DNA of 64,000 nucleotides from Bacteroidia bacterium (GCA_014376805.1 JACMQU010000110.1:259-64258); one strand, 5' to 3'. Counted from the stretch's first letter, positions 24,283-45,211 are shown. Notes: a model not told the origin generated them from the letters alone. Program-made: numbers and translations.

Positions 24283-24298
24283 ACTTAAAAGATTTGTA

Positions 24299-25525
24299 AT
24301 GTGGCAACTTACTATTCCCGTTTTATTACTTTACTTAGTTATTGGTTCATGCAATACTAACACTAAACAGAATACAGAAAAAGTGAGTGTGGATAGCTCT
24401 ACCTTATATTACTGCCCTATGCATCCGGAGATAGTAAAACTATCACCCGGTATCTGTCCTAAGCCTGTGTGTAAGGGAATGGAACTTATAAAAAAAGTAA
24501 ATGATAAGGGCATGGCAGAAGTGTTAAATCCGGTTAATTCTAATGTACTCTCCTCTATAAAAACGGTTCATCCTAAAGAAATGGAACTGGCAACGGATAT
24601 AAACAGTCAGGGCTATATTGATTTTGATAACCGTACCAAACATAATGTAGCTTCAAAATATAATGGAAGGATAGAAAAACTATATATAAAAAATAATTTC
24701 CAACTTGTAAAAAAGGGAGACAGACTTTTTGATATTTATAGTCCCGAACTAATAACCCTTCAGCAAAATCTCATTTACCTGCTTTCGGGCAATGGTTCAG
24801 AAGAACTTATTAACGGCACTAAACTTAAGCTAAAATTATTGGGCTTTACAGATGGGCAAACGGATGCGCTTGTTAAAACTAAAAAAGTATTGCAGGTTGT
24901 TCCCGTATTTAGTAAATACAATGGCCATGTGCATGAAGCACCTGATACACGCCAAACAAATATGAGCATGCAAAGCAGGCAACAAACTGCTGAACTTTCT
25001 GTTAAAGAAGGCATGTACGTGGAAAAGGGTAAAGGAATCTTTAATATTTTTGATCCCAGTGATTTGGTGGTTATTTTAAAAATAAATGCAACTGATGTAG
25101 CTGAAATATGGGTGGGACAGGAAGTAAAATATACCGTTAATGAGGTTTCTGATAGTGTTTTGAGGGGAAAAATTAATTTTATTGAACCTTTCTATCAACA
25201 GGGTGGCAAAACCTTACTGGTAAGAGTTAATATGAACAACCATGAACAACACCATAAAGCAGGAAGTTTGGTTAAGGCAATAATAAAAGGTAAAAAAACG
25301 GAAGGCCTTTGGATACCAGAAAATGCTGTATTGAATCTGGGTATTAACAAAATGGTATGGCTTAAGAAGGGTGGAGGATTTGTATCGCATAAAATAGAGA
25401 TAGGGGTTACTTCAAATGATTGGATAGAAGTATATGATGGCTTAACAAAAAGAGATGAAATTGCAGCTGAAGCACATTATTTAAATGACAGTGAAAGTAT
25501 AATTAAAATGGATAGTGACAAGTAA
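24299..25525 (+). CDS. RND periplasmic adaptor (CusB-like) with N-terminal heavy-metal-binding domain, copy 1
   Basis: Lipoprotein signal (LVIGSC), a YYCPMHPEIV..PGICPKPVCKGMEL four-Cys metal-binding motif, then a lipoyl/beta-barrel adaptor body (NGRIEKLYIKNNFQLVKKGDRLFDIYSPEL). Confidence 0.8.
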   Translation: MWQLTIPVLLLYLVIGSCNTNTKQNTEKVSVDSSTLYYCPMHPEIVKLSPGICPKPVCKGMELIKKVNDKGMAEVLNPVNSNVLSSIKTVHPKEMELATDINSQGYIDFDNRTKHNVASKYNGRIEKLYIKNNFQLVKKGDRLFDIYSPELITLQQNLIYLLSGNGSEELINGTKLKLKLLGFTDGQTDALVKTKKVLQVVPVFSKYNGHVHEAPDTRQTNMSMQSRQQTAELSVKEGMYVEKGKGIFNIFDPSDLVVILKINATDVAEIWVGQEVKYTVNEVSDSVLRGKINFIEPFYQQGGKTLLVRVNMNNHEQHHKAGSLVKAIIKGKKTEGLWIPENAVLNLGINKMVWLKKGGGFVSHKIEIGVTSNDWIEVYDGLTKRDEIAAEAHYLNDSESIIKMDSDK

Positions 25526-25535
25526 TAACCAACCG

Positions 25536-26789
25536 ATGAAACAGGAAAAGGAACAACAACAAAAAACATTTACTATTTTCATTGCTAAACTGCCTAAAAG
25601 GATAACATTTCTTCTGATGGTTGTAGCTATGTTTTTTTTATTTTACTCCTGCAGAAAGCCTAAAGAAAAAATTGCAGAAAACGAATATTATATATGTTCC
25701 ATGGATCCGCAGGTAATGGAAAAACAACCAGGTAATTGTCCTATTTGTCAGATGACATTAACTAAAGCAATTATTAATAGAAATCAGATGGAGGTAATTA
25801 AACTAAGTAACGAACAAATACAATTAGCCGGTATAAAAACAGCTACAGTAAGGTTTTCGGAAATTGGGGAAGAGCATGTACTATCCGGTATTTTTTCACT
25901 TAATCAAAATAACACAGAACAAATAAGTTCAAGGATTAATGGCCGTATAGAAAAATTATATCATAAAATTATTGGTGAAGAAATTAAAAAGGGCAGCCCT
26001 GTTTATGATATGTATAGCCGTGAATTATTTTTGGCACAAGATGAATATTTAATTGCATGGAACCGCTTTGAAAAAATTGAAAATCAATATACAGAAGGCA
26101 GTGAAATAGTACTTTCCGCTAAAAATAAGTTATTACTATGGGGTATGACGGAAGGCCAGATAAAAGTACTGGAGCATACCGGTATAGCGCAAGTTACACT
26201 GCCGGTATTTAGTAAAGTTTCGGGTATTATAACTAATATACCTTTAAAGGAAGGTGATTATATTAGCGAAGGAAGCCGAATTTATGCGCTGGCCGGTTTA
26301 AAGACCCTATGGGTGGAGGCCCAGTTATTCTCAAGTGAACTTAATTATTTACAGGAAGGTAAAAAAGTAGAAATTATACCGCATACCTATCCACAACAAC
26401 ATATTGAGGGTACAATTATATTTACCAACCCCGAATTACAAGAGCAAAGTAAAATTAACCTGGTGCGAATTGAAGTGGATAACAAAGATCTTATTTATAA
26501 ACCGGGTGCGCAGGTTTATGTGATCCTGAAATCTGATTTAAAAAAAGCAATTGCCGTTCCTGTAGATGCTGTAATCGCAAATGAAAACTATTCCATCGTT
26601 TGGGTTCAGAATAGCAATGAAACTTTTAGTGCAAAGACCGTAAAAACCGGAATGCAAAATAACAATGAGGTTGAGATTATTTCAGGTCTTAAAGTAGGTG
26701 AACAGGTAGTGATAAGCGGGTCTTATTTATTAAACAGTGAATTTATTTTTAAACGGGGTATGAAGCCAATGGCACAGACAAAAATGTAA
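25536..26789 (+). CDS. RND periplasmic adaptor (CusB-like) with N-terminal heavy-metal-binding domain, copy 2
   Basis: Lipoprotein signal (FLFYSC), YYICSMDPQVMEKQPGNCPICQMTL, and an adaptor body (NGRIEKLYHKIIGEEIKKGSPVYDMYSREL). Paralogue of the preceding gene. Confidence 0.8.
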   Translation: MKQEKEQQQKTFTIFIAKLPKRITFLLMVVAMFFLFYSCRKPKEKIAENEYYICSMDPQVMEKQPGNCPICQMTLTKAIINRNQMEVIKLSNEQIQLAGIKTATVRFSEIGEEHVLSGIFSLNQNNTEQISSRINGRIEKLYHKIIGEEIKKGSPVYDMYSRELFLAQDEYLIAWNRFEKIENQYTEGSEIVLSAKNKLLLWGMTEGQIKVLEHTGIAQVTLPVFSKVSGIITNIPLKEGDYISEGSRIYALAGLKTLWVEAQLFSSELNYLQEGKKVEIIPHTYPQQHIEGTIIFTNPELQEQSKINLVRIEVDNKDLIYKPGAQVYVILKSDLKKAIAVPVDAVIANENYSIVWVQNSNETFSAKTVKTGMQNNNEVEIISGLKVGEQVVISGSYLLNSEFIFKRGMKPMAQTKM

Positions 26790-27362
26790 ATGGCTAAACA
26801 AAATAAAACTATTCAAATAAAAAATATGTGTTGCCGCCGGTGTATTCTAATGGTAACAGATATTTTAGAAAAACGCAGTTTACATGTACAATCTGTGAGG
26901 CTGGGTAAGGCCGTGTTTACCGGCAATATCGACTATAAACTACTAGATAATGATTTAAAGTTAATTGGCTTTGAACGCATTATTGATCCTGAAATTATTT
27001 TAACAGAAACTATCAGAAACACCTTGTTTGAATTTATTAATAATATAGAGGAGCATACCGAAAACAATTCTAATCTGATTAAATTAGTTGAACACAAAAC
27101 GAAAATTACATTCAGGCAGGCTAACCTTGTTTTTATAAAGCACAGAAATACCACTATTGAAAAATATTTTATTTTACTGAAAATTGAAAAAGTAAAAGCA
27201 CTTATTGAAGAGGGGCAACTAAATTTTAATGAAATTGCTGAAAAGTTGGAATATAAAGCATATCAGCACCTCGCTGCACAATTTAAAAAAAACACAAGTA
27301 AAACAATGAGTAGCTTTAAAAAATCTAATCATAAAAACAGGAAGCCTTTTGATGAAATTTAA
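26790..27362 (+). CDS. Regulator with HMA-like N-terminal domain and a divergent AraC-type HTH
   Basis: IQIKNMCCRRCILMV (an HMA-like beta1-loop with Cys) and C-terminal LNFNEIAEKLEYKAYQHLAAQFKK. Paralogue of 52713..53312. The ATG abuts the upstream stop. Confidence 0.6.
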   Translation: MAKQNKTIQIKNMCCRRCILMVTDILEKRSLHVQSVRLGKAVFTGNIDYKLLDNDLKLIGFERIIDPEIILTETIRNTLFEFINNIEEHTENNSNLIKLVEHKTKITFRQANLVFIKHRNTTIEKYFILLKIEKVKALIEEGQLNFNEIAEKLEYKAYQHLAAQFKKNTSKTMSSFKKSNHKNRKPFDEI

Positions 27363-31695: not shown

Positions 31696-32019
31696 ATGAA
31701 AACATTGGCTATCATTTTCTCTATATACATAACGCTGCTTGCTGCTATGCCTTGCTGTATATTTGATAATTGTCCCGATGACCAGTCAGTTAATTCACAG
31801 TCGGATAAACTTAACCATGAAAGTGGTGATGAAGATGGTTGTGGCACTTGTTCACCATTTTTTAATTGTAGTACCTGTAATGTTTCATTTATAAATACCC
31901 AGGTAAACATCTTTAATTTTGTTAGTTTTATTATAAGCGATAAAATTCAATGCAATTATGTTTTTATAAGCACAGGAACTTGTATTACTTCCATCTGGCA
32001 ACCGCCTAAATTAGTTTGA
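31696..32019 (+). CDS. DUF6660-like small Cys-rich membrane protein
   Basis: MKTLAIIFSIYITLLAAMPCC.FDNC, CSPFFNCSTC and C-terminal WQPPKLV match my recollection of the DUF6660 pattern, which is commonly found upstream of czcA in Bacteroidota. Confidence 0.5.
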   Translation: MKTLAIIFSIYITLLAAMPCCIFDNCPDDQSVNSQSDKLNHESGDEDGCGTCSPFFNCSTCNVSFINTQVNIFNFVSFIISDKIQCNYVFISTGTCITSIWQPPKLV

Positions 32020-32097
32020 TCAGCTTAATTTTATTTGTCGGGTTATAATTCACCTGGCCCGTTTTTACTTTTTTTTATTAATAAAAATCAAACAATT

Positions 32098-35000
32098 ATG
32101 CTTGATGCAATTATCCGTTTTTCCATCCGGAACAAACTGATTATAGGAATATTTACGCTTGCCTTAATAGCGTGGGGAAGCTATTCTGTGACACAACTTC
32201 CTATTGATGCAGTGCCCGACATTACCAATAACCAGGTTCAGATAATTACCATAGCACCTTCACAAGCAGCTCAGGATATAGAAAGGTTAGTAACATTTCC
32301 TATTGAGCAAGCTGTGGCAACCATTTATGGAATATATGAAGTGCGATCATTTTCACGTTTTGGATTAAGTACCGTTACCGTTGTATTTAAAGATCATATT
32401 GATCCATATTGGGCAAGACAACAAATTGCGGAAAGGTTAAATAATGCCAGAGACCTGATACCTGCCGGGATCGGAATTCCAATACTTGCACCCTTGAGTT
32501 CTGGTTTAGGCGAAATCTATCAATATACTATTCATGAAAAAAAAGGATCTGATAAAAAATATTCCGCATTAGATTTACGTACTATACAAGACTGGATTGT
32601 TCGCAGACAATTACTGGGTGTAGAAGGTATAGCGGATGTAAGCAGTTTTGGCGGTAAGCTTAAACAATATGAAATATCTTTAAACCCTGATAAACTGAAG
32701 GGAATGAATATTACCATTAATGAAATATTTACTGCCCTGAAAAAGAATAACCAGAATACCGGGGGAGCCTACATTGATAAAAAACCTAATGCTTATTACA
32801 TACGTTCTGAAGGATTAATTGAAACATTAGATGACATAGAAAATATAGTAGTTAAGAACATGCAAAACGGAATACCTGTGCTAATAAGAGATGTTGCACA
32901 TGTTCAATTAGGCAATGCCATAAGATACGGAGCCATGACCTATAATGCGGATGGTGAAGTGGTAGGTGGTATTGTTATGATGCTAAAAGGAGCAAATTCA
33001 TCAAAGGTAATTGGCAATGTAAAAGAGCGTATAAAACAAATTGAAAAAACATTACCGGAAGGTTTAGCCATTGAACCATTTATAGATCGTACCAAACTTG
33101 TAAATAGCGCAATTAATACCGTAACAAAAAATCTGGCAGAAGGGGCATTGATTGTAATATTTATACTGGTGATTTTTTTAGGGAATTTTCGTGCAGGGAT
33201 TATTGTGGCATCGGTAATTCCACTCGCTATGTTGTTTGCTGTTTCATTAATGAACGTATTTGGTGTATCTGGTAATTTAATGAGTTTGGGAGCACTCGAC
33301 TTTGGATTGATTATAGATGGTGCTGTGATTATAGTAGAAGCAACTATGCATCATTTAGGATTAAGGGGTATTAACAGAAAACTTACCCAACCTGAAATGG
33401 ATGATGAAGTTTTTGAATCAGCCAGCAAGATCCGAAACTCAGCAGCTTTTGGAGAGATTATTATATTAATAGTTTATCTGCCAATACTTGCCCTGGTAGG
33501 TATTGAAGGGAAAATGTTTAAACCCATGGCGCAAACAGTTTCATTTGCAATAATAGGAGCGTTTATACTTTCTCTTACTTATGTACCTATGATTAGTGCT
33601 TTGTTTTTAAATAAAAACATCAGCAGTAAAAAAACCTTTTCTGATAAAATGATGGAAAAAATTTATGCGTGGTATAAGCCGCTTATATCCTATTCGCTTA
33701 ATAAATCAAAGTTGATAATTGGAATGGCCGTTATCATTTTTGTTTTTTCGTTATTTCTTTTTAATCGTTTAGGTGCAGAGTTTATACCATCGCTTGATGA
33801 AGGAGATTTTGCAGTTGAAACACGCGTACTAACGGGCAGTAGTTTAAGTGAAACAATAGAAGCGGCATCAAAAGCGGCAAAAATTTTATTAAAGGAATTT
33901 CCGGATGAAGTTAAAGAAGTGGTAGGAAAAATCGGATCATCTGAAATTCCCAGTGATCCAATGCCTATAGAAGCATGTGATTTGATGGTAATGTTAAAGC
34001 CTAAAGAGGAATGGAAGAAAGCAAATAGTGGTAATGAACTGGCAAATAAAATGGGAGAAGCTTTAGTGGACATTCCAGGGGTAACATTTAGCTTTCAGCA
34101 ACCAATTCAAATGCGTTTTAATGAGTTGATGAGTGGTGCAAGACAAGATGTGGTGATAAAAGTATATGGCGAAGATCTGGATATGCTTACTTCTTATGGT
34201 GAAAAAATAGGTAAAATTTTACCTGCTATTGAAGGGGCGGTTGACATATACGTTGAGAAAGTGACAGGACTGCCACAGATCATTATTAAATATAAAAGGG
34301 ATCAGATTGCAAAATTTGGAATGAACATAGAAGATATTAATCAAACTATTAATGCAGCATTTGCCGGCCAAAGTGCGGGCTTAGTGTACGAAAAAGAAAA
34401 AAGGTTTGATCTGGTAGTGCGTTTGGATTTAAACAGCAGACAAGGAATTGAAGATGTAAGGCAACTTTATGTTAACACCCCTGCAGGACTTCAAATACCT
34501 TTGCAGCAGGTTGCAGATGTATCTTTTGTGATAGGTCCTAATCAGATTCAAAGAGATGATGCGAAACGCAGAATAATTATTGGATTTAACATAAGAGGGC
34601 GCGATGTGGAAAGTATTGTAAATGAATTAAAAGATAAGATTGATACTAAAATAAAATTTGCTCCGGGTTATTATGTTACTTATGGCGGCACTTTTAAAAA
34701 TCTTGAAGAAGCCCGTTCACGTCTAATAATTGCAGTTCCTGTATCTTTATTATTAATTCTGATATTGTTGTATTTCACATTTGGTTCTATCATACAAAGT
34801 TTGTTAATTTTTACTGCCATACCGCTTTCTGCTATTGGGGGAATATTGGGCTTATGGGTGCGTGATATGCCTTTTAGCATTTCGGCCGGTGTGGGGTTTA
34901 TTGCACTGTTTGGTGTTGCCGTATTAAATGGCATAGTGCTGATTGGTGAGTTTAACAGGTTGAAAAAAAATGGTATTACAGACCTCCAAGAAATTATTTT

Positions 35001-36471
35001 AAAAGGAACACAAATAAGGCTGCGGCCGGTAATTATGACAGCCTGTGTTGCCTCATTAGGATTTCTTCCTATGGCGTTGTCGCACGGTGCCGGAGCTGAA
35101 GTACAAAAGCCTCTGGCAACAGTTGTTATAGGCGGGTTAATAACTGCCACTTTATTAACACTTATTGTATTGCCTTGTTTATATTTATTAATTGGCAAAC
35201 GTAAAAATCTAACATCAAAAATACCTTTAACAGTAATATTATTTTTGGTTTGTTTAGTGTTTAAAACCAAAAATGTTGCAGCTCAAAACATTCCTGTAAG
35301 TTTAGAAAGTGCCATCTCTATTGCTATAGAAAACAACAAAGGTTTGAAAGCAGTTTATAAGGAAAAAATGATATTTGAGTATCAAAAAAAAATGGCCACC
35401 GAATTGCCTAAAACGGATGTAAGCTTATTGTATGGTCAATACAATGGTTTTTATAAACAGGACAATAATTTTGCCGTAACCCAGATTATCCCGTTTCCTA
35501 CAGTATTCATTGCAAAATCGGCACTAGGAAATGAACGCATTAAAAGCGCAGAATATAAAATTGCATTTACACAAAATGAACTAATATACAGGGTAAAAAA
35601 TGTATATTATAATTTAATTTATCTTCAACTATTAGAAGGCATGTTGCTACAGCAGGATAGTGTTTACAAAGATTTTTCAAGGGCTGCAAGTTTAAAATAC
35701 AAAGTTGGTGAATCTACCTTATTAGAAAAAATGGCTGCTGAAAGTCGTATGCAGGAAATTGCAAACAGAATATTGAATAATGCTGCTGAGATCAAACAAA
35801 AACAAACGGAGTTTCAGTTCCTGCTTAACACAGATCGTAACTATATTATTGGTGAGTTTGTTAAAAATGAATTGTTGTTAAGCAGTAAAACCGATTCAAA
35901 TCAAATTCAGTTAAATCCTTATTTAAATTTTCTTAAACAGCAGGTGGCCATTGCTGAAAAGGAAAAATCGGTTGCTGTGAATTCATCTTTACCGGATTTT
36001 AAAATTGGATATTTTAATCAGAGTCTTTATGGTGTTCCGCTTAGTGATGTAAACATGCAATTTGCAGGAGCATCAAATAGATTTCAGGGCTTACATGTGG
36101 GTGTAATTTTTCCACTTTGGTTCGCACCGGATGTGGCAAAAGCCAAATCGTTTAAAGCCCAGGCTCTTACTGCTGAGCTCAATTTTCAATATCAGGAAAT
36201 GAATATTCAAAATCAATTTAAACAAATTGTTCTGAATTATATTAAGTCTAGAAATAGCCTGAATTATTACAATAACACAGCCTTACCAAATGTGAACCTG
36301 ATAAGCAGGCAATCTCAAATTGCCTATGCAAAAGGAGAATTAAGTTATACAGAATATTTATTGAGCCAGCAACAGGTAATAAGCATTCGTGAAAACTATC
36401 TGCAAACCTTAAATGAATATAACCAGGCTATCATTAACATCGAATTTTATACAGGTAATTATAACAAATAA
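32098..36471 (+). CDS. czcA: CzcA-type divalent-cation RND pump fused in frame to a TolC-like outer-membrane factor
   Basis: The first ~1040 aa are collinear with CzcA (EFIPSLDEGDFAVE, FSFQQPIQMRFNELMSGARQDV, 12 TM). Next comes KRKNLTSK + IPLTVILFLVCLVF + KTKNVAAQ, then about 400 aa of OMF-type helical repeats. No stop codon anywhere in the single 1478-codon ORF. Confidence 0.85.
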   Translation: MLDAIIRFSIRNKLIIGIFTLALIAWGSYSVTQLPIDAVPDITNNQVQIITIAPSQAAQDIERLVTFPIEQAVATIYGIYEVRSFSRFGLSTVTVVFKDHIDPYWARQQIAERLNNARDLIPAGIGIPILAPLSSGLGEIYQYTIHEKKGSDKKYSALDLRTIQDWIVRRQLLGVEGIADVSSFGGKLKQYEISLNPDKLKGMNITINEIFTALKKNNQNTGGAYIDKKPNAYYIRSEGLIETLDDIENIVVKNMQNGIPVLIRDVAHVQLGNAIRYGAMTYNADGEVVGGIVMMLKGANSSKVIGNVKERIKQIEKTLPEGLAIEPFIDRTKLVNSAINTVTKNLAEGALIVIFILVIFLGNFRAGIIVASVIPLAMLFAVSLMNVFGVSGNLMSLGALDFGLIIDGAVIIVEATMHHLGLRGINRKLTQPEMDDEVFESASKIRNSAAFGEIIILIVYLPILALVGIEGKMFKPMAQTVSFAIIGAFILSLTYVPMISALFLNKNISSKKTFSDKMMEKIYAWYKPLISYSLNKSKLIIGMAVIIFVFSLFLFNRLGAEFIPSLDEGDFAVETRVLTGSSLSETIEAASKAAKILLKEFPDEVKEVVGKIGSSEIPSDPMPIEACDLMVMLKPKEEWKKANSGNELANKMGEALVDIPGVTFSFQQPIQMRFNELMSGARQDVVIKVYGEDLDMLTSYGEKIGKILPAIEGAVDIYVEKVTGLPQIIIKYKRDQIAKFGMNIEDINQTINAAFAGQSAGLVYEKEKRFDLVVRLDLNSRQGIEDVRQLYVNTPAGLQIPLQQVADVSFVIGPNQIQRDDAKRRIIIGFNIRGRDVESIVNELKDKIDTKIKFAPGYYVTYGGTFKNLEEARSRLIIAVPVSLLLILILLYFTFGSIIQSLLIFTAIPLSAIGGILGLWVRDMPFSISAGVGFIALFGVAVLNGIVLIGEFNRLKKNGITDLQEIILKGTQIRLRPVIMTACVASLGFLPMALSHGAGAEVQKPLATVVIGGLITATLLTLIVLPCLYLLIGKRKNLTSKIPLTVILFLVCLVFKTKNVAAQNIPVSLESAISIAIENNKGLKAVYKEKMIFEYQKKMATELPKTDVSLLYGQYNGFYKQDNNFAVTQIIPFPTVFIAKSALGNERIKSAEYKIAFTQNELIYRVKNVYYNLIYLQLLEGMLLQQDSVYKDFSRAASLKYKVGESTLLEKMAAESRMQEIANRILNNAAEIKQKQTEFQFLLNTDRNYIIGEFVKNELLLSSKTDSNQIQLNPYLNFLKQQVAIAEKEKSVAVNSSLPDFKIGYFNQSLYGVPLSDVNMQFAGASNRFQGLHVGVIFPLWFAPDVAKAKSFKAQALTAELNFQYQEMNIQNQFKQIVLNYIKSRNSLNYYNNTALPNVNLISRQSQIAYAKGELSYTEYLLSQQQVISIRENYLQTLNEYNQAIINIEFYTGNYNK

Positions 36472-36475: not shown

Positions 36476-37702
36476 ATGAATTTTATTAAAAGAAACATTC
36501 AGATTAGTTTTATATTTATGGCATTTTCAATTGCACTGGCATGTGGCAATAAGCAGGAGCAGGCTAAACAAACTGAAGTTAAAGAAACAGGTAATGGAAA
36601 CCTTGTTGAATTTACACAGCCGCAATTTGAAACATCGGAAATTGAAACAGGGGAGGTAGAACTGCGAAATATAAGCGGTACTATACAGGCTAATGGTATG
36701 TTAGATGTGCCACCTCAAAGTAAAGTAACCATTGCTGCTCCTATGGGTGGTTTTGTAAAAGAAACTCAGTTGCTTCAGGGCACCCATGTGGAAAAAGGAC
36801 AGGTAGTTGCAATTATGCAAAATACAGAATATATACAGATGCAGCAGGATTATCTGGATTACAGCAGCCAACTTGAATATTTAAAGGGAGAATATAACAG
36901 ACAACTCGAATTAGCAAAAGAAAACATCAATGCACAGAAAGCATTGCAGCAAAGTAAAGCAGCCTATTTAAGTATTCTGGCAAAGACAAAAGGCATAACT
37001 GCTAAGTTAAAAATGTTAAACATGGATGTTTCCGGAATTGAAAAAGGAGAGCTTAAACAAACCATTAGTTTACGTTCACCTATAACCGGATTTGTAACAA
37101 AGGTGAATGTAAATATTGGTGCTTATGTAAATCCAACAGATGCTATGTTTGAAATAGTTAATACAGAACACCTGCATGCTGAACTCACCGTTTTTGAAAA
37201 AGATGTACCAAAATTAAAAATTGGGCAAAAGGTTTTATTTACTTTAGCAAATGAAAATAAACCACGCAAAGCTGCCATCTATTTAATAGGCAGAGAGATT
37301 AATAAAGACCGTTCCGTTCAGATTCATTGTCATCTCAATGATGAAGATTCGGAACTCATTCCGGGAACATATTTGCGTGCATTTGTGGAAACAGATAATA
37401 ACAAGGTAACGGCACTGCCTTTAGAAGCGATTATTAATTTTGAAGGAAAGGATTATATTTTCATTGTAAAAGAAATTGAGCCAATTAATACACAGGCAGA
37501 TAAAGATGCTGGATTAGAAAAAACGAAGGATACATCCATAAGCGTTCATACATTTGAATTAATTGAAGTAGAAAAGGGAAATGAAGAATTGGGTTATGCT
37601 GAAATTCATTTGCCAAAAACGTTTAACCTGAAATCTAAAGTTGTGATAAAAGGTGCCTACAATATATTGGCTAAGATGAAAAATAGTGAAGAAGAAGAAT
37701 AA
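36476..37702 (+). CDS. RND periplasmic adaptor (CzcB/HlyD family)
   Basis: Lipoprotein signal (SIALAC), biotinyl-lipoyl-like motifs (MGGFVKETQLLQGTHVEKGQVVAIMQN; ITGFVTKVNVNIGAYV) and a coiled-coil hairpin. Start at ATG 36476. Confidence 0.8.
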   Translation: MNFIKRNIQISFIFMAFSIALACGNKQEQAKQTEVKETGNGNLVEFTQPQFETSEIETGEVELRNISGTIQANGMLDVPPQSKVTIAAPMGGFVKETQLLQGTHVEKGQVVAIMQNTEYIQMQQDYLDYSSQLEYLKGEYNRQLELAKENINAQKALQQSKAAYLSILAKTKGITAKLKMLNMDVSGIEKGELKQTISLRSPITGFVTKVNVNIGAYVNPTDAMFEIVNTEHLHAELTVFEKDVPKLKIGQKVLFTLANENKPRKAAIYLIGREINKDRSVQIHCHLNDEDSELIPGTYLRAFVETDNNKVTALPLEAIINFEGKDYIFIVKEIEPINTQADKDAGLEKTKDTSISVHTFELIEVEKGNEELGYAEIHLPKTFNLKSKVVIKGAYNILAKMKNSEEEE

Positions 37703-37763: not shown

Positions 37764-39791
37764 ATGATTAACAACGATCCTAACCATATACATCAATATG
37801 ATGCAAATGGAAAAATGATCTGCTGCTCCCTTGAAGAGAAAGTTTATTTAAAAGCGAATGCAGATAATTTGATTCATTCAAACAACAGGCATGCGGATGA
37901 ATCTGATCATTTGCATGTTCATTCATCTGATGAAGATACCCGGAAAGTATATATCCCGGCAACAATCAGTTTCATCTTTTTAAGCGCGGGTTTATTATTT
38001 GATTATTTTATAAAACCGGTTTTTTTTCAGGCTTACTTTAGGATTGCCTGGTATGTATTTGCTTATTTACCGGTTGGAATTCCTGTAATGAAGGATGCCA
38101 TAAAATCTATTGCAGCAGGTGCCTTGTTCTCCGAATTTTTCTTGATGTCTATTGCTACCCTGGGTGCTTTTTTTATCGGTGAATATGCAGAAGGAGTAAC
38201 AGTTATGTTATTTTATGCTGTGGGTGAATTGTTTCAGACGGCTGCTGTTAACCGCGCTAAAAAAAGTATAAAAGCCTTGTTGGATATGCGTCCCGATACT
38301 GTTAATATTTTAAGAAACGGATCTATACAAACAGTTTCTCCTGCTCAGGTTCAAATTGGTGAAACCCTTCAAGTGATGCCCGGAGAAAAGGTAGCGCTTG
38401 ATGGCGAATTGATTTCTGCCTCTGCCTCTTTTAATACTGCAGCCCTCACTGGCGAAAGCAAACCGGATACAAAAAATAAAGGTGAAATGGTGCTGGCTGG
38501 AATGATAAACTTAAATTCTGTTTCAGATATTATAGTCACTACTTTATTTAAGGATAGCAAATTGTCGAAAATATTAGAAATGGTGCAGGAGGCAACTTCG
38601 CGTAAATCGCAAACTCAATTGTTTATTACAAAATTTGCCAGAATATATACACCCATTGTTGTGCTGTTGGCACTTTGTATTTGTTTACTACCCTATTTTT
38701 TTGTGTCTGATTATGTTTTCAGTAATTGGCTATACCGCTCCTTAGTATTCCTGGTTATATCTTGTCCTTGTGCCTTGGTAATTTCTATTCCATTAGGATA
38801 TTTTGGTGGAATTGGATTGGCATCCCGAAACGGAATTTTATTTAAAGGCTCTAATTACTTAGATATAATGACTAAAATTGATACTGTTGTTATGGATAAA
38901 ACAGGCACCCTTACCAAAGGAGTATTTAAGGTTCAAGACGCTGTTAGTGCTGGTATTGAGCAAAATGAATTACTTAAACTAACTGCTGCTTTAGAAAGCA
39001 AATCAACTCACCCGATCGCAAAGGCAATATCTCTGCACGTTGGTGATGCATTTAAAAATGTAAGTGTAAGTAATGTTGAAGAAATTTCTGGTTATGGCTT
39101 AAAAGGAACTATTGATGGTAAAGAAGTATTGGCCGGCAATTTAAAATTGTTTAAAAAATATAACATCGATTACAACAAAATAATTGAAAACATAACAGAA
39201 ACCATTGTAGTAGTTGCAGTGAACAACAAATATGCAGGTTATATTACTATTGCAGATGAAATAAAAGAAGATGCTTCTCAAACAATTAAAGACTTGCATA
39301 GTATTCATATTAAAACAGTGATATTATCTGGCGATAAACAAAGTGTAGTTGATAAAATTGCAAAAAAATTAGGTATTGATACTGCTTATGGCGATTTATT
39401 ACCTGAACATAAAGTTGAAAAAGTACAGGCCTTAAAAAATGAAAATAGAACCATTGCCTTTGTTGGAGATGGTGTTAATGATGCGCCTGTTGTTGCACTG
39501 GCAGATGCCGGAATTGCCATGGGTGGTTTAGGTAGTGATGCCACCATAGAAACGGCTGATATTGTTATTCAGAACGACCAGCCTTCAAAAATTGTAACAG
39601 CTATTAAAATTGGCATACTTACCCGAAAAATTGTCTGGCAAAATATTGCCCTGGCTCTCTCTGTTAAAGTTATGGTTTTGATATTAGGTGCAATTGGCAC
39701 TGCTACATTATGGGAAGCAGTTTTTGCAGATGTAGGGGTGGCTTTACTTGCTATTTTAAATGCGGTAAGAATACAACGTGTAAAATTTTAA
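37764..39791 (+). CDS. P1B-type heavy-metal ATPase, Zn/Cd/Pb (ZntA/CadA) subtype
   Basis: CPC (SCPCALVIS), DKTGTLT and GDGVNDAP. TM7 Lys (LALSVKVMVL) and TM8 ADVG (D-x-G) match the P1B-2 signature. The N-terminus is His/Cys-rich with no HMA fold. Confidence 0.9.
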   Translation: MINNDPNHIHQYDANGKMICCSLEEKVYLKANADNLIHSNNRHADESDHLHVHSSDEDTRKVYIPATISFIFLSAGLLFDYFIKPVFFQAYFRIAWYVFAYLPVGIPVMKDAIKSIAAGALFSEFFLMSIATLGAFFIGEYAEGVTVMLFYAVGELFQTAAVNRAKKSIKALLDMRPDTVNILRNGSIQTVSPAQVQIGETLQVMPGEKVALDGELISASASFNTAALTGESKPDTKNKGEMVLAGMINLNSVSDIIVTTLFKDSKLSKILEMVQEATSRKSQTQLFITKFARIYTPIVVLLALCICLLPYFFVSDYVFSNWLYRSLVFLVISCPCALVISIPLGYFGGIGLASRNGILFKGSNYLDIMTKIDTVVMDKTGTLTKGVFKVQDAVSAGIEQNELLKLTAALESKSTHPIAKAISLHVGDAFKNVSVSNVEEISGYGLKGTIDGKEVLAGNLKLFKKYNIDYNKIIENITETIVVVAVNNKYAGYITIADEIKEDASQTIKDLHSIHIKTVILSGDKQSVVDKIAKKLGIDTAYGDLLPEHKVEKVQALKNENRTIAFVGDGVNDAPVVALADAGIAMGGLGSDATIETADIVIQNDQPSKIVTAIKIGILTRKIVWQNIALALSVKVMVLILGAIGTATLWEAVFADVGVALLAILNAVRIQRVKF

Positions 39792-39941
39792 CTGTTAAAA
39801 ATCAATAAGTAATGTTTAAAACAATAATCGTTATTTACAAAATTAATGATACTATAAAAAATGTAAATTGACACGCTTTAACCGATATAAAATGATTGTC
39901 TAATATCATTCAAAAGTTTAAAATATTTGAAAACTGAAAGC

Positions 39942-39967
39942 TCCACATTTCATGTAGATTTTTTTTT
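39942..39967 (+). terminator. Putative intrinsic terminator downstream of the ATPase gene
   Basis: TCCACAT and ATGTAGA form a 7-bp stem with one mismatch and a 3-nt loop, followed by nine T. It lies about 150 nt after the stop codon. Confidence 0.35.
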
Positions 39968-40118
39968 ACAGATACAATTTATAACATAAGTTAAATAGTA
40001 CTTAATTATTTACTTATTTATATGCGCATACTAGAATAATAGCCCCAATAAATCATCCTTTCATCATTCTAAGTAATCTTTACTCAAGAACAAAAATATA
40101 ATTGATTTTTTTATTGGT

Positions 40119-40149
40119 TTTGGTAATTCGAGAAATACATTTAGATTTG
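40119..40149 (+). promoter_or_regulatory. Complete Bacteroidota promoter (-33 TTTG / 19 nt / -7 TAGATTTG)
   Basis: TTTG at 40119-40122, a 19-nt spacer and TAGATTTG at 40142-40149, ending 31 nt before ATG 40181. Confidence 0.5.
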
Positions 40150-40180
40150 TTTAAAAATATTTTTAATAATATCTAAATTT

Positions 40181-41377
40181 ATGTTTCCAATACGAACTTC
40201 TATAGTAGTTTTTTCAGCATTTATATTCATAAGTGCATGTATAAAACTGGAACCTTCTGCACCAGATAGCAATAATGTGTTAGATGGTCCCTTAGCTGAA
40301 CTTAATCACGAGCAAATGATTCAGCACATGCATGGAGATGCTGCATTTAATGATGCTATTTTTACATCTGAAAATGGTCTGGGCCCTGTATTTGTAGCAA
40401 ACACCTGTGCAAGTTGCCATGCAGGAGATGGAAAAGGCCACCAGTTTACCTCCTTAACGCGTTTTGGACAATCAGACAGCACAGGAAATTTATTTATTGG
40501 TAAAGGTGGGCCACAATTACAAAACAGAGCCATTCCGGGATTTCTCCCAGAACAACTTCCCTTTGGGGTACCTTTCACAAAATTAGTGGCTCCTGCTGTT
40601 ACGGGTTTAGGTTTCATTGATGCGGTAACGGATGCGGATATTATTGCCATGGCTGATCCAACAGATGCAGATGGAGACGGAATATCAGGTGTATTAAGTG
40701 TTGCTATTTTACCTTCATATGTAATTCCCCGAAACATGGCTATTCCACAAAATGGTTATTTCATTTGTAGGTTTGGCAAAAAAGCCGGTGCTTATGATTT
40801 GGTTTTACAAACGGCAAAAGCTTATAATCAGGATATGGGAATAATTTCGGGTTATGAGCCGGTTGATCCACATAGTAATTTGGCCGGAGATCCGGAAATA
40901 ACAGCACAAACTATTCAGGATAATGTATTTTATCAAAAGACTTTAAAAGCCCCACTTGCCCGAAATCAAAATAATTCTGATGTAATTTCAGGTAAGCAAA
41001 TTTTCATAAATATCGGTTGTGTAACTTGTCATAAAAAAGAGTTAAAAACAGGCCATTCAACAATAAGTTCATTATCCGAAAAATTATTCTTTCCTTACAC
41101 AGATTTACTGCTGCATGACATGGGTTCAGATCTGGATGATGGTTATACAGAAGGTTCAGCCAAATCAAGTGAATGGAGAACACCTGCACTATGGGGACTG
41201 GGATTAAGCAAAAACTCCCAGGGTGGAAATTATTTTTTAATGCATGATGGCAGGGCAACTACTATTGAACAAGCTGTTTTATTACATGGCGGAGAGGGGA
41301 GCAAAAGCCGCTCACAATACAATGCTTTAACCGAAACTGAAAGGAAAAAACTCCTTATATTTTTAGAAAACTTATAA
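40181..41377 (+). CDS. Di-haem cytochrome c oxidoreductase/peroxidase-like lipoprotein (DUF1111 family)
   Basis: Lipoprotein signal (FISAC) and two CxxCH haem motifs (CASCHAGDGKG; CVTCHKKEL). The family-typical end is TPALWGLG...LMHDGRATTIEQAVLLHGGEG. Confidence 0.8.
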   Translation: MFPIRTSIVVFSAFIFISACIKLEPSAPDSNNVLDGPLAELNHEQMIQHMHGDAAFNDAIFTSENGLGPVFVANTCASCHAGDGKGHQFTSLTRFGQSDSTGNLFIGKGGPQLQNRAIPGFLPEQLPFGVPFTKLVAPAVTGLGFIDAVTDADIIAMADPTDADGDGISGVLSVAILPSYVIPRNMAIPQNGYFICRFGKKAGAYDLVLQTAKAYNQDMGIISGYEPVDPHSNLAGDPEITAQTIQDNVFYQKTLKAPLARNQNNSDVISGKQIFINIGCVTCHKKELKTGHSTISSLSEKLFFPYTDLLLHDMGSDLDDGYTEGSAKSSEWRTPALWGLGLSKNSQGGNYFLMHDGRATTIEQAVLLHGGEGSKSRSQYNALTETERKKLLIFLENL

Positions 41378-41820
41378 TGAACCGGAGCACATTTATAAAG
41401 CAAGGGTGTATTTCATGCCTGGGGATAAGTCTCGGAATGTCACTCTTTAATTCCTGTAAATCCATACATTATGTAAATGGTAAGATGTCAGAAAATAACC
41501 TGAGTATCCCGATAACCGAATTTTCTGAACCTAATAAAAAAGGTAACGATACTTACAGAAAATATATTTTAGTTAAACATGAATCTCTTCAATATCCAAT
41601 TTGTGTTTATCGCATTTCCGGCAATGATTATAAAGCATTATGGCTACGTTGTTCGCATCAGGGTGCAGAATTGCAAGTGTCGGGTGATACTTTAGTTTGT
41701 CTGGCTCATGGATCAGAATTTGATAATTCAGGTAAAGTAACCAATGGACCTGCTGATAAAGACCTGCGAACTTTTATAACGTATCTTAAAAACGAACATT
41801 TAAACATAGTTTTAAAATGA
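41377..41820 (+). CDS. Rieske [2Fe-2S] domain protein
   Basis: CxH (LRCSHQG) and CxxH (CLAHGSEFD) Rieske ligand boxes at the usual spacing. TAATG overlap with the upstream gene. Confidence 0.8.
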   Translation: MNRSTFIKQGCISCLGISLGMSLFNSCKSIHYVNGKMSENNLSIPITEFSEPNKKGNDTYRKYILVKHESLQYPICVYRISGNDYKALWLRCSHQGAELQVSGDTLVCLAHGSEFDNSGKVTNGPADKDLRTFITYLKNEHLNIVLK

Positions 41821-43049
41821 AAAAATATTTATTTCTTATCTTATTGCAACTGGTTATACTCACCTCATTTGCGCAGGTTGATACTTCTTTATTCAAAACG
41901 ATCGCAAAAGATACTTCCTATAAAAACAACCTGATGAATATGGATGCTGTCTATAGCAGACCTTTTTTGAATTATTCAAAATCTCCGGTTTCAATTGGTG
42001 GTTATCTCGAAGCAAATTATCAGCACTTAGGTACAAACGGAATTAGTGAAGGACATCAGTTTCAGATGCGCAGAATGACCCTATTTATTGCATCATCCAT
42101 AAAAAACAGAATTAAGTTTTTGTCTGAAATAGAATTTGAAGATGGAACTAAAGAAATAAACATTGAGTTTGCCGCTGTTGATTTTACTTTCAATCCTATG
42201 ATAAATATAAGAGGCGGTATCCTGATGAATCCTATCGGGGCATTTAACCAGAATCATGATGGGCCTAAGTGGGAGTTTATAGACAGGCCTATATCAGCAA
42301 CACAAATGCTTCCCGCTACCTGGAGTAATGTAGGTTTCGGATTATATGGTAAAAAATATTCAGGTAACTGGATTTATGCTTATGAAGTTTATTTAACCAA
42401 TGGATTTGATGATCGGATCATAGCAAATAATGCAAACCGAACCAACCTGGCAGCAACTAAAGCAAATAAAAACCGTTTTGAAGAGAGCCCCAACGGAGAA
42501 CCGCTCTACACCGGAAAGTTTGCCATACGCAATAGAAAAATCGGGGAATTAGGTCTTTCTTATATGGGAGGCATCTATAACAAATTTCAGATAGATGGGT
42601 TCAACATTGATAAAAAGCGAAGTGTACATACATTTGCCATCGACTTTAATACAACATTACCGGTACTAAACACGAAGTTAATTGCAGAATGGGCTATGGT
42701 GGTAGTAGATGTTCCACCAACCTATTCACAGCAATTTGGAGATAAACAATATGGTGGCTTTTTAGATGTTGTTCAACCGGTTTTTAAAAAGCAAATGCAG
42801 GGTTTTCATAATGCTGTATTAAACCTTGCCTGCCGGTTTGAATTTGTGGATTGGAATGTGGCTACATTTAGAGAAACCGGAGGGAATATTGCTGATCATA
42901 TTTGGGCGGTTGTTCCTGCTGTTTCATTCAGACCTTCGCAACAAACTGTAATACGAATTAACTATCGCTATCAGCAACAAACGGATTTGTTAGGTAATAT
43001 ACCATTGCGAACCGGTGGATTTCAGATTGGATTCTCTACTTATTTTTAA
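41817..43049 (+). CDS. Outer-membrane porin-like beta-barrel protein
   Basis: ATGA overlap with the Rieske gene. Signal peptide, GGYLEANYQHL...FQMRRMTLFI...SEIEFEDG...RGGILMNPIGAFNQNHD pattern reminiscent of phosphate-selective-porin-like barrels, ending GFSTYF. Confidence 0.5.
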   Translation: MKKYLFLILLQLVILTSFAQVDTSLFKTIAKDTSYKNNLMNMDAVYSRPFLNYSKSPVSIGGYLEANYQHLGTNGISEGHQFQMRRMTLFIASSIKNRIKFLSEIEFEDGTKEINIEFAAVDFTFNPMINIRGGILMNPIGAFNQNHDGPKWEFIDRPISATQMLPATWSNVGFGLYGKKYSGNWIYAYEVYLTNGFDDRIIANNANRTNLAATKANKNRFEESPNGEPLYTGKFAIRNRKIGELGLSYMGGIYNKFQIDGFNIDKKRSVHTFAIDFNTTLPVLNTKLIAEWAMVVVDVPPTYSQQFGDKQYGGFLDVVQPVFKKQMQGFHNAVLNLACRFEFVDWNVATFRETGGNIADHIWAVVPAVSFRPSQQTVIRINYRYQQQTDLLGNIPLRTGGFQIGFSTYF

Positions 43050-43185
43050 TGAAGTTCAATATTTAATCATGACCAATACAAATTAATTTTACCATAAATT
43101 ATTCTCACTGAAAAAACGGGGGAAGAATAATTCTCAAAAACAATCAATTTGGATAATTCAAAAAAGAACCTTAGCTTGCACAGTA

Positions 43186-43578
43186 TTGAAAAAAATTGTA
43201 GCCATATTATTACTTTTTAGCTTTTTTCTGGCAAATTCAGGAATGGCGGTTTCAATGCACTGGTGTGGCGGTAAAATAACACATATCAGTTTTTTTTCCA
43301 ACGATTCACACCTTTGTTCCTGCAAAAAAAAGGAAAAGGACATGAAACCCGGCTGTTGTAAAGACAAAACAGCTTTCTTTAAATTAAAAAGTGAAATAAA
43401 TTCTCCAAATAATCACTCCTTTAAAGCATCAGTTTTTCAGATTATTTATATTCATTTTAACCAAAAAGAAACAGCGTATCTTTCTCTATATAAATTTACG
43501 AATACATTCTTCTATTATCCTCCCCCATTTAAACCTAAAGTTCCTACTTATATTACCAACGGAGTTTTTATCATTTAA
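43186..43578 (+). CDS. HYC_CC_PP-like small Cys-rich membrane protein, second copy
   Basis: TTG start, TM helix, MHWCGGK, GCCKDK and YPPPFKPK, ending NGVFII. The 5' end is conserved at the nucleotide level with 18853-18895. Confidence 0.55.
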   Translation: MKKIVAILLLFSFFLANSGMAVSMHWCGGKITHISFFSNDSHLCSCKKKEKDMKPGCCKDKTAFFKLKSEINSPNNHSFKASVFQIIYIHFNQKETAYLSLYKFTNTFFYYPPPFKPKVPTYITNGVFII

Positions 43579-43709
43579 TATTTCTGAAGTAATCTTAACC
43601 GTCATATCTGAACGGTTATTGAAGTTTTGGCATATCTGTGAGTCAGATTTGCGGCCAATTCAATTATACTTTTATAAAACTCAACAAAAATTATTTAAAA
43701 ATTTAAAAT

Positions 43710-44501
43710 ATGAAAAAATCAATTTTACTTTCACTTGTTTTGACGTTCGTTATTACGATTTCCAAAGCTCAGACTACTGCCATGAATTTCAATAAGAAAG
43801 ATTGCAGTGGCACCATGCACAATCTTTTTACGGATTTAGATGCAGGTAATGCAGTTATCCTTCATTTTTTTATGCCTAATTGCGGAAGTTGTCCTCCTCC
43901 GGCTCAAAAAATTCAGGCAATGGCAAATAATATTTTGAAATCACATCCCGGAAAAATAAAAGCTTATGCTATACCGTTCAACAATTCCACTACTTGTTCT
44001 TATGCATCAACTTGGGTTTCTTCTAATGGGCTTTCTTTATATACAGCATTAGATAGTGGTTCTGCTCAAGTAGCTCATTATGGCGGTTTTGGTATGCCTA
44101 CAGTAGTTGTTTTAGGTGGTATAGATCATAAAGTGTTGTTTTCAACGCTGAGTTTTTCAACCAGCGATACTACCACTATGAGGAATTCAATATTAAATAT
44201 GCTGAATGGTACTGCCGGAATTGATACTAAAATTATCAATGATATTCCTGCAATTAGTGTATTTCCAAATCCGGCAATAGATAACATGCAGATTGAACTT
44301 AATTTAAGCCAGACATCAAATATTAAAATTGAAGTTATAAACATGCTTGGAGAAATTGTAAGTGCTGTTTATAATGGTAAAGCCGGTGAAGGTGTTTTAA
44401 GAAAAGAGGTTTCAACAACTGATTTTAGTAATGGGATTTATTTTGTAAGGGTAATTTCAAATAATAATTTACAGAATTACAAATTCACAGTTACGCATTA
44501 A
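43710..44501 (+). CDS. Thioredoxin-fold CxxC protein with T9SS C-terminal sorting domain, second copy
   Basis: DCSGTMHNLF..NAVILHFFMPNCGSC, FGMPTVVVLGG, CTD (VFPNPAIDNMQIEL...NGIYFVRVISN...YKFTVTH). Confidence 0.6.
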   Translation: MKKSILLSLVLTFVITISKAQTTAMNFNKKDCSGTMHNLFTDLDAGNAVILHFFMPNCGSCPPPAQKIQAMANNILKSHPGKIKAYAIPFNNSTTCSYASTWVSSNGLSLYTALDSGSAQVAHYGGFGMPTVVVLGGIDHKVLFSTLSFSTSDTTTMRNSILNMLNGTAGIDTKIINDIPAISVFPNPAIDNMQIELNLSQTSNIKIEVINMLGEIVSAVYNGKAGEGVLRKEVSTTDFSNGIYFVRVISNNNLQNYKFTVTH

Positions 44502-45205
44502 TGTTTAAGGGTATCCAGGTAAAATTAAAAACAGGACTGGCAGTGGTTTTAACCACTGCCACTGTCTTCACTTTTGCTCAAAGCTATAATATTACGCCCA
44601 ACGATACTTTCATGGATCTGACGCCATTTAATAAACTCAGCCATTTTACCATACAACAAAATAACCTTACTAACGGAAAACTCCTTTTTAACTGGCAGCA
44701 GTTAGTTTTAAATATTCCATCCGGCTGGACAGCTAATTTATGCGACAATGGGCATTGCTATGCCGACTTTCCAGTAAAAGGGAAAATGGATACTGTTTTT
44801 AAAAGTGAATATGGAATGATGTCTCTAGGGATTGATCCCGGTATGGTATCCGGAACCGCACTTATCCGCTATGCAATCTGGGAGCAAAGTACACCTGAAA
44901 ATATGGATACCTTAACCTGGATTATTTCTTCAAACAGTGCAACCGGATTTACCGAAACAGAGCCTGATAAATCGTTGCTGATTTTTGTTGATGTAAGCGG
45001 AGATAACATTCATTTGTTAACATCATTGAATAAAGGTTTTTATTGCTCAATTTCTGATATTTCAGGTAAACAGGTTTATTCTGAAAATTTCATTTTTTCT
45101 ACAGCAAATATTTCTTCAGAAAATTTCCCAAATGGTTTTTATAATATTCTGATTATGGATTCCAATAAGAATATCAAAACTAAAAAAATAATGATTCAAC
45201 ACTAA
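44501..45205 (+). CDS. Small secreted CxNGxC protein with a T9SS-CTD-like end
   Basis: TAATG overlap. Signal peptide, FNWQQL...GWTANLCDNGHCY and the tail GKQVYSENF...FPNGFYNILIMD...KKIMIQH. Paralogue of 51682..52380. Confidence 0.5.
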   Translation: MFKGIQVKLKTGLAVVLTTATVFTFAQSYNITPNDTFMDLTPFNKLSHFTIQQNNLTNGKLLFNWQQLVLNIPSGWTANLCDNGHCYADFPVKGKMDTVFKSEYGMMSLGIDPGMVSGTALIRYAIWEQSTPENMDTLTWIISSNSATGFTETEPDKSLLIFVDVSGDNIHLLTSLNKGFYCSISDISGKQVYSENFIFSTANISSENFPNGFYNILIMDSNKNIKTKKIMIQH

Positions 45206-45211
45206 TTTACC

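Follow-up and report, generated by a model that had tools for sequence, protein, structure and literature searches.

A 64,000-nucleotide stretch of DNA from a Bacteroidia bacterium (GCA_014376805.1, JACMQU010000110.1:259-64258; the whole of it is called the window below) carries a gene that encodes in one chain a CzcA-type pump, a heavy-metal efflux (HME) transporter of the resistance-nodulation-division (RND) kind, and its outer-membrane factor (OMF). Textbook tripartite efflux pumps are three-gene systems; here, a whole clade of HME pumps from Bacteroidota makes the motor and the channel as one chain. The two parts are joined by a segment that reads as a Sec signal peptide, and the gene product is probably a polyprotein for two membranes, cut by signal peptidase I (SPI), with CzcA left carrying a residual 13th helix. 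Components and likely function alike are those of an ordinary HME tripartite pump. The new feature is the polyprotein arrangement.

A czcA gene fused in frame to an outer-membrane factor

The open reading frame (ORF) extends without interruption over nucleotides 32035-36471 of the plus strand, and it comprises 1478 codons if counted from the TTG at 32035. The ATG at 32098 is the likely start of the gene, since the catalogued product (P0121) is 1457 residues long and the lengths of the homologues agree with a product of this size. The product is laid out as the RND pump (residues 1-1032), a junction of 30 residues (1033-1062) and the OMF (1063-1457). The window has a G+C content of 34.8%, at which stops arise by chance with p = 0.075 per codon and the mean random open run is 13 codons. 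The chance of the 420 open codons found past the junction is approximately 7e-15, and the remaining two frames contain 36 and 43 stops over positions 35194-36471; hence, the open frame is not a product of chance. We regard the fusion of czcA and the OMF in one gene as real beyond reasonable doubt.

The pump part is recognized along its entire length. Pfam ACR_tran matched residues 5-1032 (E 1e-283), and NCBIfam TIGR00914 (CusA/CzcA) matched residues 1-1038 with 1172.6 bits, above the curated cut-off of 701.45. The nearest solved structure is that of ZneA (4k0e, E 1.5e-205), for which residues 6-1035 align onto chain residues 6-1018, and CusA aligned to residues 1-1034 (E 1.6e-184). The hydropathy peaks are at the expected places for 12 transmembrane (TM) helices and two large periplasmic loops, with TM12 at residues 1014-1032. 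By homology to ZneA and CusA, the C-terminus of the pump part is predicted to be cytoplasmic. The TM4 motif, DFGLIIDGAVIIVEA (residues 401-415, nucleotides 33298-33342), has both aspartates and the glutamate, and its last residue is alanine (VEA). This alanine stands in place of the asparagine of the TM4 relay of divalent-cation pumps, reportedly DFG..DGA..VEN (Nies 2003). As context for a putative metal efflux, with Zn/Cd/Co as the presumed substrates, genes for a CzcB-type adaptor and for a P1B ATPase of the Zn/Cd type lie nearby.

The OMF part was matched by Pfam OEP (PF02321) in two stretches (E 1.7e-24). A sequence-only search of the PDB with this part, either as a single sequence or as a 25-sequence profile, gave no match at E <=0.01. 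The AlphaFold2 model of residues 1063-1457 (pLDDT 84.5, pTM 0.77) depicts a complete OMF protomer. It has four strands (residues 44-50, 61-69, 238-247 and 266-275, in the numbering of the OMF), two long helices of the 70-residue class (72-141, approximately 105 Å long, and 281-349), and a helix at residues 19-37 that runs directly into the first barrel strand. The best matches in a Foldseek search with the model included CusC (3pik, E 1.5e-15), CmeC, TOprJ1 (TMq 0.80), SilC, OprN, OprM and TolC. All 39 top matches (E <=1.3e-10, TMq 0.62-0.80) were OMF channels, one of them a modeled TolC, and five weaker matches (E up to 1e-4) were also OMFs, with root-mean-square deviations >20 Å. As modeled, the OMF part is a complete protomer of the TolC/CusC fold, and from the fold we infer a trimeric channel in the outer membrane.

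The fusion is the rule in the Bacteroidota lineage

With the full protein as query, the 120 best matches were all 1434-1487 residues long, with 100% query coverage and 62-79% identity. All had the RND domain and most had the OEP domain as well, and NCBI names them 'CusA/CzcA family heavy metal efflux RND transporter'. Their sources include Solitalea, Pedobacter, Chitinophaga, Fluviicola, Cyclobacteriaceae and others, several on megabase contigs, and the closest relatives (P0122-P0125; 76-79% identity) have the same fused frame. An exhaustive HMMER search with residues 258-1457 found >70 representatives at the 50%-identity level (approximately 1400-1490 residues), each with one unbroken match through the junction and an identity of 37-53%, so the architecture is old and diverse.

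Two censuses were made over species-representative genomes, one with the OMF part as query (16 loci) and one with just the 203 C-terminal residues of CzcA, a query that contains no OMF sequence (best 80 loci). None of the 16 loci of the first census has an OMF start of its own at the junction. Thirteen are open through the whole RND part, two are open for approximately 570-630 codons upstream, and one is ended by the contig edge. Among the best 80 loci found with the CzcA tail, 75 continue through the OMF, one runs off the contig, two are interrupted within the OMF part and two are truly split. Fused genes occur in isolates, among them many Chryseobacterium, Tenacibaculum, Pedobacter steynii DSM 19110, Dyadobacter jiangsuensis DSM 29057 and Rurimicrobium arvi JCM 31921. 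For the representatives with atypical junctions (P0275, P0300, P0333 and others), all the names that were recovered belong to Bacteroidota. The sole fused locus seen outside this phylum, one of the 16 of the first census, is in an Ignavibacteria metagenome-assembled genome (MAG; L010). The czcA::OMF fusion is thus the rule in the Bacteroidota lineage. A first-pass annotation of the window, made from its sequence, had described a single uninterrupted ORF with a CzcA-type pump fused in frame to its OMF and had thought that the fusion may be typical of the lineage. Both statements hold, the former through the ACR_tran, TIGR00914 and OEP matches. That annotation had also called for a count of homologues longer than 1400 residues against split pairs; the 120 of 120 long matches and the 75 fused and two truly split loci of 80 answer it, and split pairs do exist.

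A search with the OMF part alone returned mostly standalone OMFs and fragments of fused ones and first implied that the fusion is rare, an impression that we rejected as a sampling effect of the word-indexed search. Some MAG loci have an interrupted fused gene, with a shorter upstream open frame (L002, L009) or a stop inside the OMF part (L019, L036); these are presumably pseudogenes or assembly errors. A 5.4-kb contig (CALRSN020000196.1) carries a typical Bacteroidota fused gene under a MAG named Bordetella parapertussis, a label that is probably a binning error.

The junction has the features of a Sec signal peptide

The junction of the window reads ...LPCLYLLIGKRKNLTSKIPLTVILFLVCLVFKTKNVAA/QNIPVSLESAISIAIENN, the slash marking the cleavage that we predict for SPI between nucleotides 35283 and 35284, after V-A-A (residues 1060-1062). 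The V-A-A and the glutamine behind it occupy nucleotides 35275-35286, Gln1063 being encoded by 35284-35286 and followed directly by NIPVSLESAISIAIENNK. The segment begins at residue 1033, after 12 TM helices, and is hence internal and not N-terminal as are canonical signal peptides. Its putative n-, h- and c-regions are given in Table 1. Across 191 fused junctions the n-region has a mean net charge of +3. The mean length of the uncharged stretch is 15.9 residues in the fused proteins vs 14.1 in the signal peptides of standalone OMFs, both well below the >=19 residues of the real TM helices in the same protein. At 14 residues, the putative h-region of the window protein is of signal-peptide length and too short for a stable transmembrane helix.

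The cleavage motif was scored as a small or aliphatic residue at -3 and A, G or S at -1, then Gln, at most 16 residues past the hydrophobic core. It is present in 172 of the 191 fused junctions (90%), in 60 of 72 (83%) when only the 50%-identity representatives are counted, and in 105 of 109 standalone OMFs (96%). At the control sites, which follow TM1 and TM7 of the fused proteins, the score was 6 of 390 (2%), and in random 16-mers of matching composition it was 12%. The dipeptide [AGS]Q occurs in 184 of the 191 fused junctions. A simpler rule, by which the first Gln after the h-region was taken, gave A, S or G at -1 in 82% and was dropped for the motif test with its controls. In Bacteroidetes, a mean of 71% of the SPI substrates of the phylum have Gln at +1 (the Q-rule), which glutaminyl cyclase converts to pyroglutamate (PMC5837995; also PMC10653852), and the Q-rule score of Ignavibacterium album is 77% (PMC5837995). 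Gln1063, at +1 of the window junction, conforms to this rule.

Compared with its seven closest relatives, the window protein shows 77-85% identity in the RND part and 46-68% in the OMF, but just 12-28% in the 30-residue junction, with in-frame indels. In six of the seven, the residue aligned with -1 is nonetheless A or S and the one aligned with +1 is Q, and the seventh has NA/Q a few residues upstream. Low identity with the cleavage residues kept is the way in which signal peptides evolve. The frequency of the motif (90% of fused junctions vs 2% of control sites), together with these residues kept in diverged junctions, argues that the cleavage motif and the +1 Gln are under selection in the fused proteins. 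The first-pass annotation had read the link as a signal-peptide-like segment with an AxA-type site, a reading that the 172 junctions of 191 vs 6 control sites of 390 bear out, and the positions that it gave (35194-35220, 35221-35262 and 35275-35286) were exact on recheck.

Split relatives and the origin of the junction

Standalone TolC-family proteins of 407-413 residues are among the nearest relatives of the OMF part. In one split locus (L017, from a 6.1-Mb genome), the order is czcA (1044 residues), OMF (408 residues), czcB, a small ORF, a P-type ATPase, DHOR and Rieske, as in the window. The stop of czcA and the start of the OMF gene overlap there as ATGA, the CzcA ending in ...LPCIYIYFEKIGSSNIKDSSV before its stop and the OMF starting MRILIILFVFSFLSGFT/QSNTLTVQQAIDLALKNN. 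From the +1 Gln to a conserved LPKTD motif, the median distance is 41 residues in the fused proteins and 40 in the standalone ones, so that the mature N-termini are in register. Since the two genes overlap as ATGA and the gene order is the same in the split relatives, the segment is the OMF's own signal peptide brought into the frame of czcA; it is demonstrably the ancestral Sec signal peptide of the OMF, kept whole.

In a neighbor-joining tree of 304 OMF parts, a rough method applied to a biased sample, the standalone forms fall into at least 8 clades nested among the fused ones, which suggests repeated fission and/or fusion. This nesting indicates that an identical mature OMF works whether it is fused or separate. 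In a further locus (L018, positions 1389-7233 of a 196-kb JGI contig), a standalone OMF (P0006) closely like the fused OMF parts follows a quite different RND gene, in the order adaptor-RND-OMF and with an ATGA overlap, the RND C-terminus being ...VVYYIANKNKAK. This locus suggests that OMFs may have moved between pump types after fission.

Proposed processing of the fused chain and alternatives

We propose the following course. A single chain would be translated, and its CzcA-type RND part would be put into the inner membrane by the 12 helices, with the C-terminus in the cytoplasm. The next 30 residues would act as the intact original Sec signal peptide of the OMF: the positive n-region would stay in the cytoplasm and the short h-region would re-engage SecYEG in the N-in/C-out orientation, threading the OMF part into the periplasm. 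SPI would then cut after V-A-A and free the OMF of 395 residues, the new N-terminal Gln1063 probably being cyclized to pyroglutamate as with most SPI substrates of Bacteroidetes. The free OMF would reach the outer membrane, trimerize, and join the CzcB adaptor and the CzcA trimer in an ordinary tripartite Zn/Cd/Co pump. The signal peptide would stay on CzcA as a short 13th helix. The probable benefit of the fusion is that one initiation event yields the pump and the channel in a strict 1:1 ratio (3:3 in the complex). Such a fusion is possible only because the OMF gene of Bacteroidota directly follows czcA, the product of which ends in the cytoplasm; in the proteobacterial czcCBA and cusCFBA operons the OMF gene comes first. 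If this processing is true, the fusion would be a widespread natural case in which SPI acts on an internal signal peptide behind a membrane protein of 12 helices, and a ready-made system for studying the stoichiometry and pairing of pump and channel.

Several points count against this course. The c-region of the window junction has two lysines, at -7 and -5, which is slightly unusual. The motif test is a plain -3/-1 rule and not a dedicated signal-peptide predictor, and approximately 10% of the fused junctions are without the strict motif. All claims on the processing of the OMF are drawn from sequence, and to our knowledge there are few proven bacterial precedents for internal signal peptides after 12 TM helices. 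With these points weighed, we hold the cut by SPI and the residual 13th helix on CzcA to be probable. An extension of this proposal, which we think unlikely, is that the fusion is a selected assembly device and more than the neutral loss of a stop codon: the OMF would be delivered in cis at its own CzcA trimer, and the residual 13th helix would be functional, for example by retaining the nascent OMF, or by recruiting the adaptor, up to the hand-over. Were it true, cognate pump-channel pairing and the 3:3 stoichiometry would be enforced in a phylum that has many OMF paralogues and lacks coupling based on Shine-Dalgarno sites.

Among the alternatives to cleavage of the chain by SPI, the OMF could be made mainly by independent initiation within the long ORF, the full-length product being a by-product. 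Methionine occurs in the n-region of 100 of the 191 fused proteins (for example ..ERKMKK.. and ..EKMGK..), and dual expression is possible in those species. This methionine looks like the vestige of a former OMF start that is being lost, and the other half of the fused family is also without it. Bacteroidota do not rely on Shine-Dalgarno sites, so that the sequence context does not speak against a start. The window gene itself offers little for this alternative. It has no ATG from residue 992 to residue 1091, in agreement with the first-pass annotation, which had seen no in-frame ATG for the OMF at the junction. The in-frame TTG at 35245 and GTG at 35257 lie inside the h-region and would yield a peptide with no n-region and an h-region of 5 residues, and a usable signal peptide would arise only from a non-canonical ATT at 35191 or ATA at 35221. 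Promoter-like sites are at the level of shuffled sequence (37 observed vs 40.8 expected); the scan for sigma-70 promoters and terminators gave counts at shuffle level throughout and is uninformative; its consensus is not that of Bacteroidota. Finally, independent translation would not need the frame to stay open, as it does in 75 of 80 species. We consider this alternative improbable, and in this window the OMF would be made only through the fusion.

A second alternative keeps the chain whole: the hydrophobic segment would be a permanent 13th TM helix, and the OMF would work while tethered to CzcA. The single ORF is as this alternative would have it, and the segment, which the first-pass annotation had described as hydrophobic, does give a TM-like hydropathy peak (KD 1.97 over 19 residues). 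The uncharged core within that peak is just 14 residues long, however, and only 7 residues (approximately 25 Å when extended) lie between it and Gln1063. The modeled fold is like that of CusC, OprM and TolC, with a full-length alpha-barrel, and by the established architecture of such pumps the N-terminus of the OMF would be in the upper half of the periplasm, >100 Å from the inner membrane. A tethered channel, as known structures indicate, could then not reach the outer membrane, and the doubt about a permanent tether raised at first pass is well placed. Moreover, the SPI motif and the +1 Gln are conserved to the level of true signal peptides, neither of which a plain anchor would need, and the mature OMF is identical in the split relatives. 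A working tether is, in our judgment, quite improbable.

Release of the OMF by another protease, be it lipoprotein signal peptidase II, a rhomboid or autoproteolysis, is very hard to credit. Many OMFs of the CusC/OprM/NodT type are lipoproteins, and the h-region of the window protein does contain a cysteine (LFLVC). In this F-L-V-C the residue at -1 is valine and the position is in the middle of the h-region, and a lipobox-like Cys motif occurs in just 4 of the 191 fused junctions, which ruled out the lipoprotein reading of the OMF. With this scarcity and with Gln as its mature N-terminus, the OMF of the window would be TolC-like and not lipidated. What is conserved is the SPI signature of the phylum, a Gln preceded by small residues at -3 and -1.

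There is only a negligible probability that the fusion is an assembly or sequencing artifact, a missed stop or a 1-nt indel merging two genes, for although split and fused relatives differ by one frame change at the ATGA overlap, which one indel could mimic, the same fused frame is kept in P0122-P0125 and in hundreds of more distant relatives from independent assemblies, including isolates, which makes a local error very unlikely, while the junction has diverged through many substitutions and in-frame indels and retains no remnant start codon in the window.

Neighboring genes and a second RND cluster

The fused gene and its surroundings are listed in Table 1. The Cys-rich DUF6660 gene was listed as an ORF from a TTG at 31687, and its first ATG is the one tabulated. 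Its product (MKTLAIIFSIYITLLAAMPCC...GCGTCSPFFNCSTC...) has a homologue in the same place, immediately before the RND gene, in 7 of 18 related loci, the split L017 included. The gene is probably the first of the operon, and its product may serve these pumps as a metal-binding or regulatory partner. The adaptor ORF was listed from an ATG at 36413, with a 59-nt overlap with the fused gene. The second ATG, at 36476, is the likelier start, because a lipoprotein-like signal peptide (MNFIKRNIQISFIFMAFSIALAC/G) follows from it and it lies 5 nt past the stop of the fusion. A membrane fusion protein (MFP) gene is directly downstream in all 17 related loci that have an RND of the type of the fused pump (16 fused-type, 1 split). 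The P1B ATPase is syntenic in L017, L004 and L007, and the window and L017 have the ATPase-DHOR-Rieske synteny in common. The fused operon is set in a metal-resistance island that extends over 37764-51623 on the plus strand. The island also encodes several proteins that bear C-terminal sorting domains of type IX secretion, and two of these proteins are multicopper oxidases (45212-46942 and 48409-50157).

Table 1. Positions of the fused gene, its predicted parts and the other features of the window
Feature	Position (nt)	Strand	Product or residues	Remarks
Fused czcA::OMF gene	32098..36471	+	1457 codons + stop	ORF scan, database matches
HME-type RND pump part, 12 TM helices	32098..35193	+	1-1032	TIGR00914, ACR_tran
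Putative signal-peptide n-region, GKRKNLTSK	35194..35220	+	1033-1041	net charge +4
Putative signal-peptide h-region, IPLTVILFLVCLVF ('13th TM segment')	35221..35262	+	1042-1055	14 residues, uncharged
Putative signal-peptide c-region, KTKNVAA	35263..35283	+	1056-1062	V at -3, A at -1
Predicted mature OMF	35284..36468	+	1063-1457, 395 residues	first residue Gln1063; Pfam OEP x2
Small Cys-rich DUF6660 gene, directly upstream of the fusion	31696..32019	+		Pfam DUF6660, E 4.4e-09
Periplasmic adaptor, CzcB-type MFP	36476..37702	+		HlyD_D23, E 3.1e-27; TIGR01730, 129.5 bits (cut-off 94.9)
P1B-type heavy-metal ATPase, Zn/Cd class	37764..39791	+		TIGR01525, 536 bits; TIGR01512, 494.7 bits (cut-off 313.5)
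Di-haem DHOR protein	40181-41377	+		
Rieske protein	41377-41820	+		
Second, CusA-like RND pump, two genes	19866-23056	+	424 + 638 residues	ACR_tran profile positions 2-419 and 414-1019
Standalone OMF of the second cluster	ATG 23059	+	starts MKKTNLLLWVVCISFFTLRA/QPLTLDS	2 nt past the RND stop
First adaptor of the second cluster	24257-25525	+		
Second adaptor of the second cluster	25515-26789	+		Pfam heavy-metal-binding domain
AraC-type helix-turn-helix gene	26790-27362			

The second RND pump of the window, the TM4 motif of which is VVDDGIIMVEN, is encoded in two halves that are joined by a TAATG overlap, the break being in the cytoplasmic TM4-TM5 loop. In each of the 63 species loci with full flanks, the C-terminal half has its own Met or start codon and its frame is closed upstream, and the N-terminal half lies just upstream in 62 of the 63, in all three relative frames. 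With an own start, a closed frame and the adjacent N-half occurring in three relative frames, this is a genuine two-gene RND pump and not a frameshift. We know of no description of a two-gene RND. The split pump mirrors the fusion and is, within these 64 kb, the second RND gene architecture that is both unusual and lineage-wide. Both adaptors of this cluster have N-terminal regions with motifs of the YYCPMHPE / YICSMDPQ type. One genome thus has both the split and the fused arrangements of pump and channel, and the second cluster serves as an internal comparator.

Comparison with known systems

No description of a natural RND-OMF fusion was found in a full-text literature search, in efflux reviews or in a genome paper, most subscription journals lying outside the coverage, and the text covered of a large 2021 review makes no mention of one. 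This is consistent with the remark of the first-pass annotation that the mechanism had, as far as it knew, not been studied. The fused sequences themselves are not new and are abundant in databases; it is their interpretation and mechanism that appear unstudied. Since the fused proteins are named only 'CusA/CzcA', the OMF goes uncounted in genomes of Bacteroidota and in metagenomic surveys of resistance genes. Several standalone OMFs of 408-416 residues bear the JGI label 'cobalt-zinc-cadmium resistance protein CzcA', a practical annotation error presumably carried over from fused proteins labeled only CzcA.

The system of the window shares its three components with CzcCBA, ZneCAB and CusCBA of Proteobacteria: an HME-RND pump, a CzcB/CusB-like adaptor and an OMF of the CusC/TolC fold. 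It also has a Zn/Cd-type P1B ATPase gene adjoining the pump genes. It differs from these systems in its gene order (RND-OMF-adaptor vs OMF-adaptor-RND), in having the pump and the OMF in one polypeptide, in an OMF that is predicted not to be a lipoprotein, and in the TM4 motif ending VEA vs the VEN of the consensus. The split operons of Bacteroidota, represented by L017 and by the second cluster of the window (19866-26789), are like the fused locus in gene order and neighbors (DUF6660, adaptor, ATPase, DHOR), and the architecture of the OMF signal peptide and the mature N-terminus are as in the fused protein. They differ in the stop and start between the genes (the ATGA overlap in L017, the 2-nt gap in the second cluster), which leave the signal peptide N-terminal.

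The closest parallel known to us for the proposed processing is in another complex. The FbcH cytochrome b/c1 precursor of Bradyrhizobium japonicum is reportedly cleaved at an internal signal peptide. FbcH resembles the fused protein in that one ORF encodes a polytopic inner-membrane part ending in the cytoplasm and, behind an internal signal peptide, a partner from the same complex that faces the periplasm. In the fused protein, likewise, the upstream part is polytopic with an end that is cytoplasmic by homology, the downstream OMF belongs to the same pump, and the adaptor gene is next. Unlike the products of FbcH, both of which are said to stay at the inner membrane, the OMF released here would have to travel to the outer membrane; and cleavage is reportedly demonstrated for FbcH, whereas here we infer it. 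With respect to the cleavage site, the junction has the n-, h- and c-regions, the small residues at -3 and -1 and the Gln at +1 of the Sec/SPI Q-rule substrates of Bacteroidetes (PMC5837995, PMC10653852). It differs from the signal peptides of those substrates in its internal position, behind 12 TM helices and 1032 residues into the chain.

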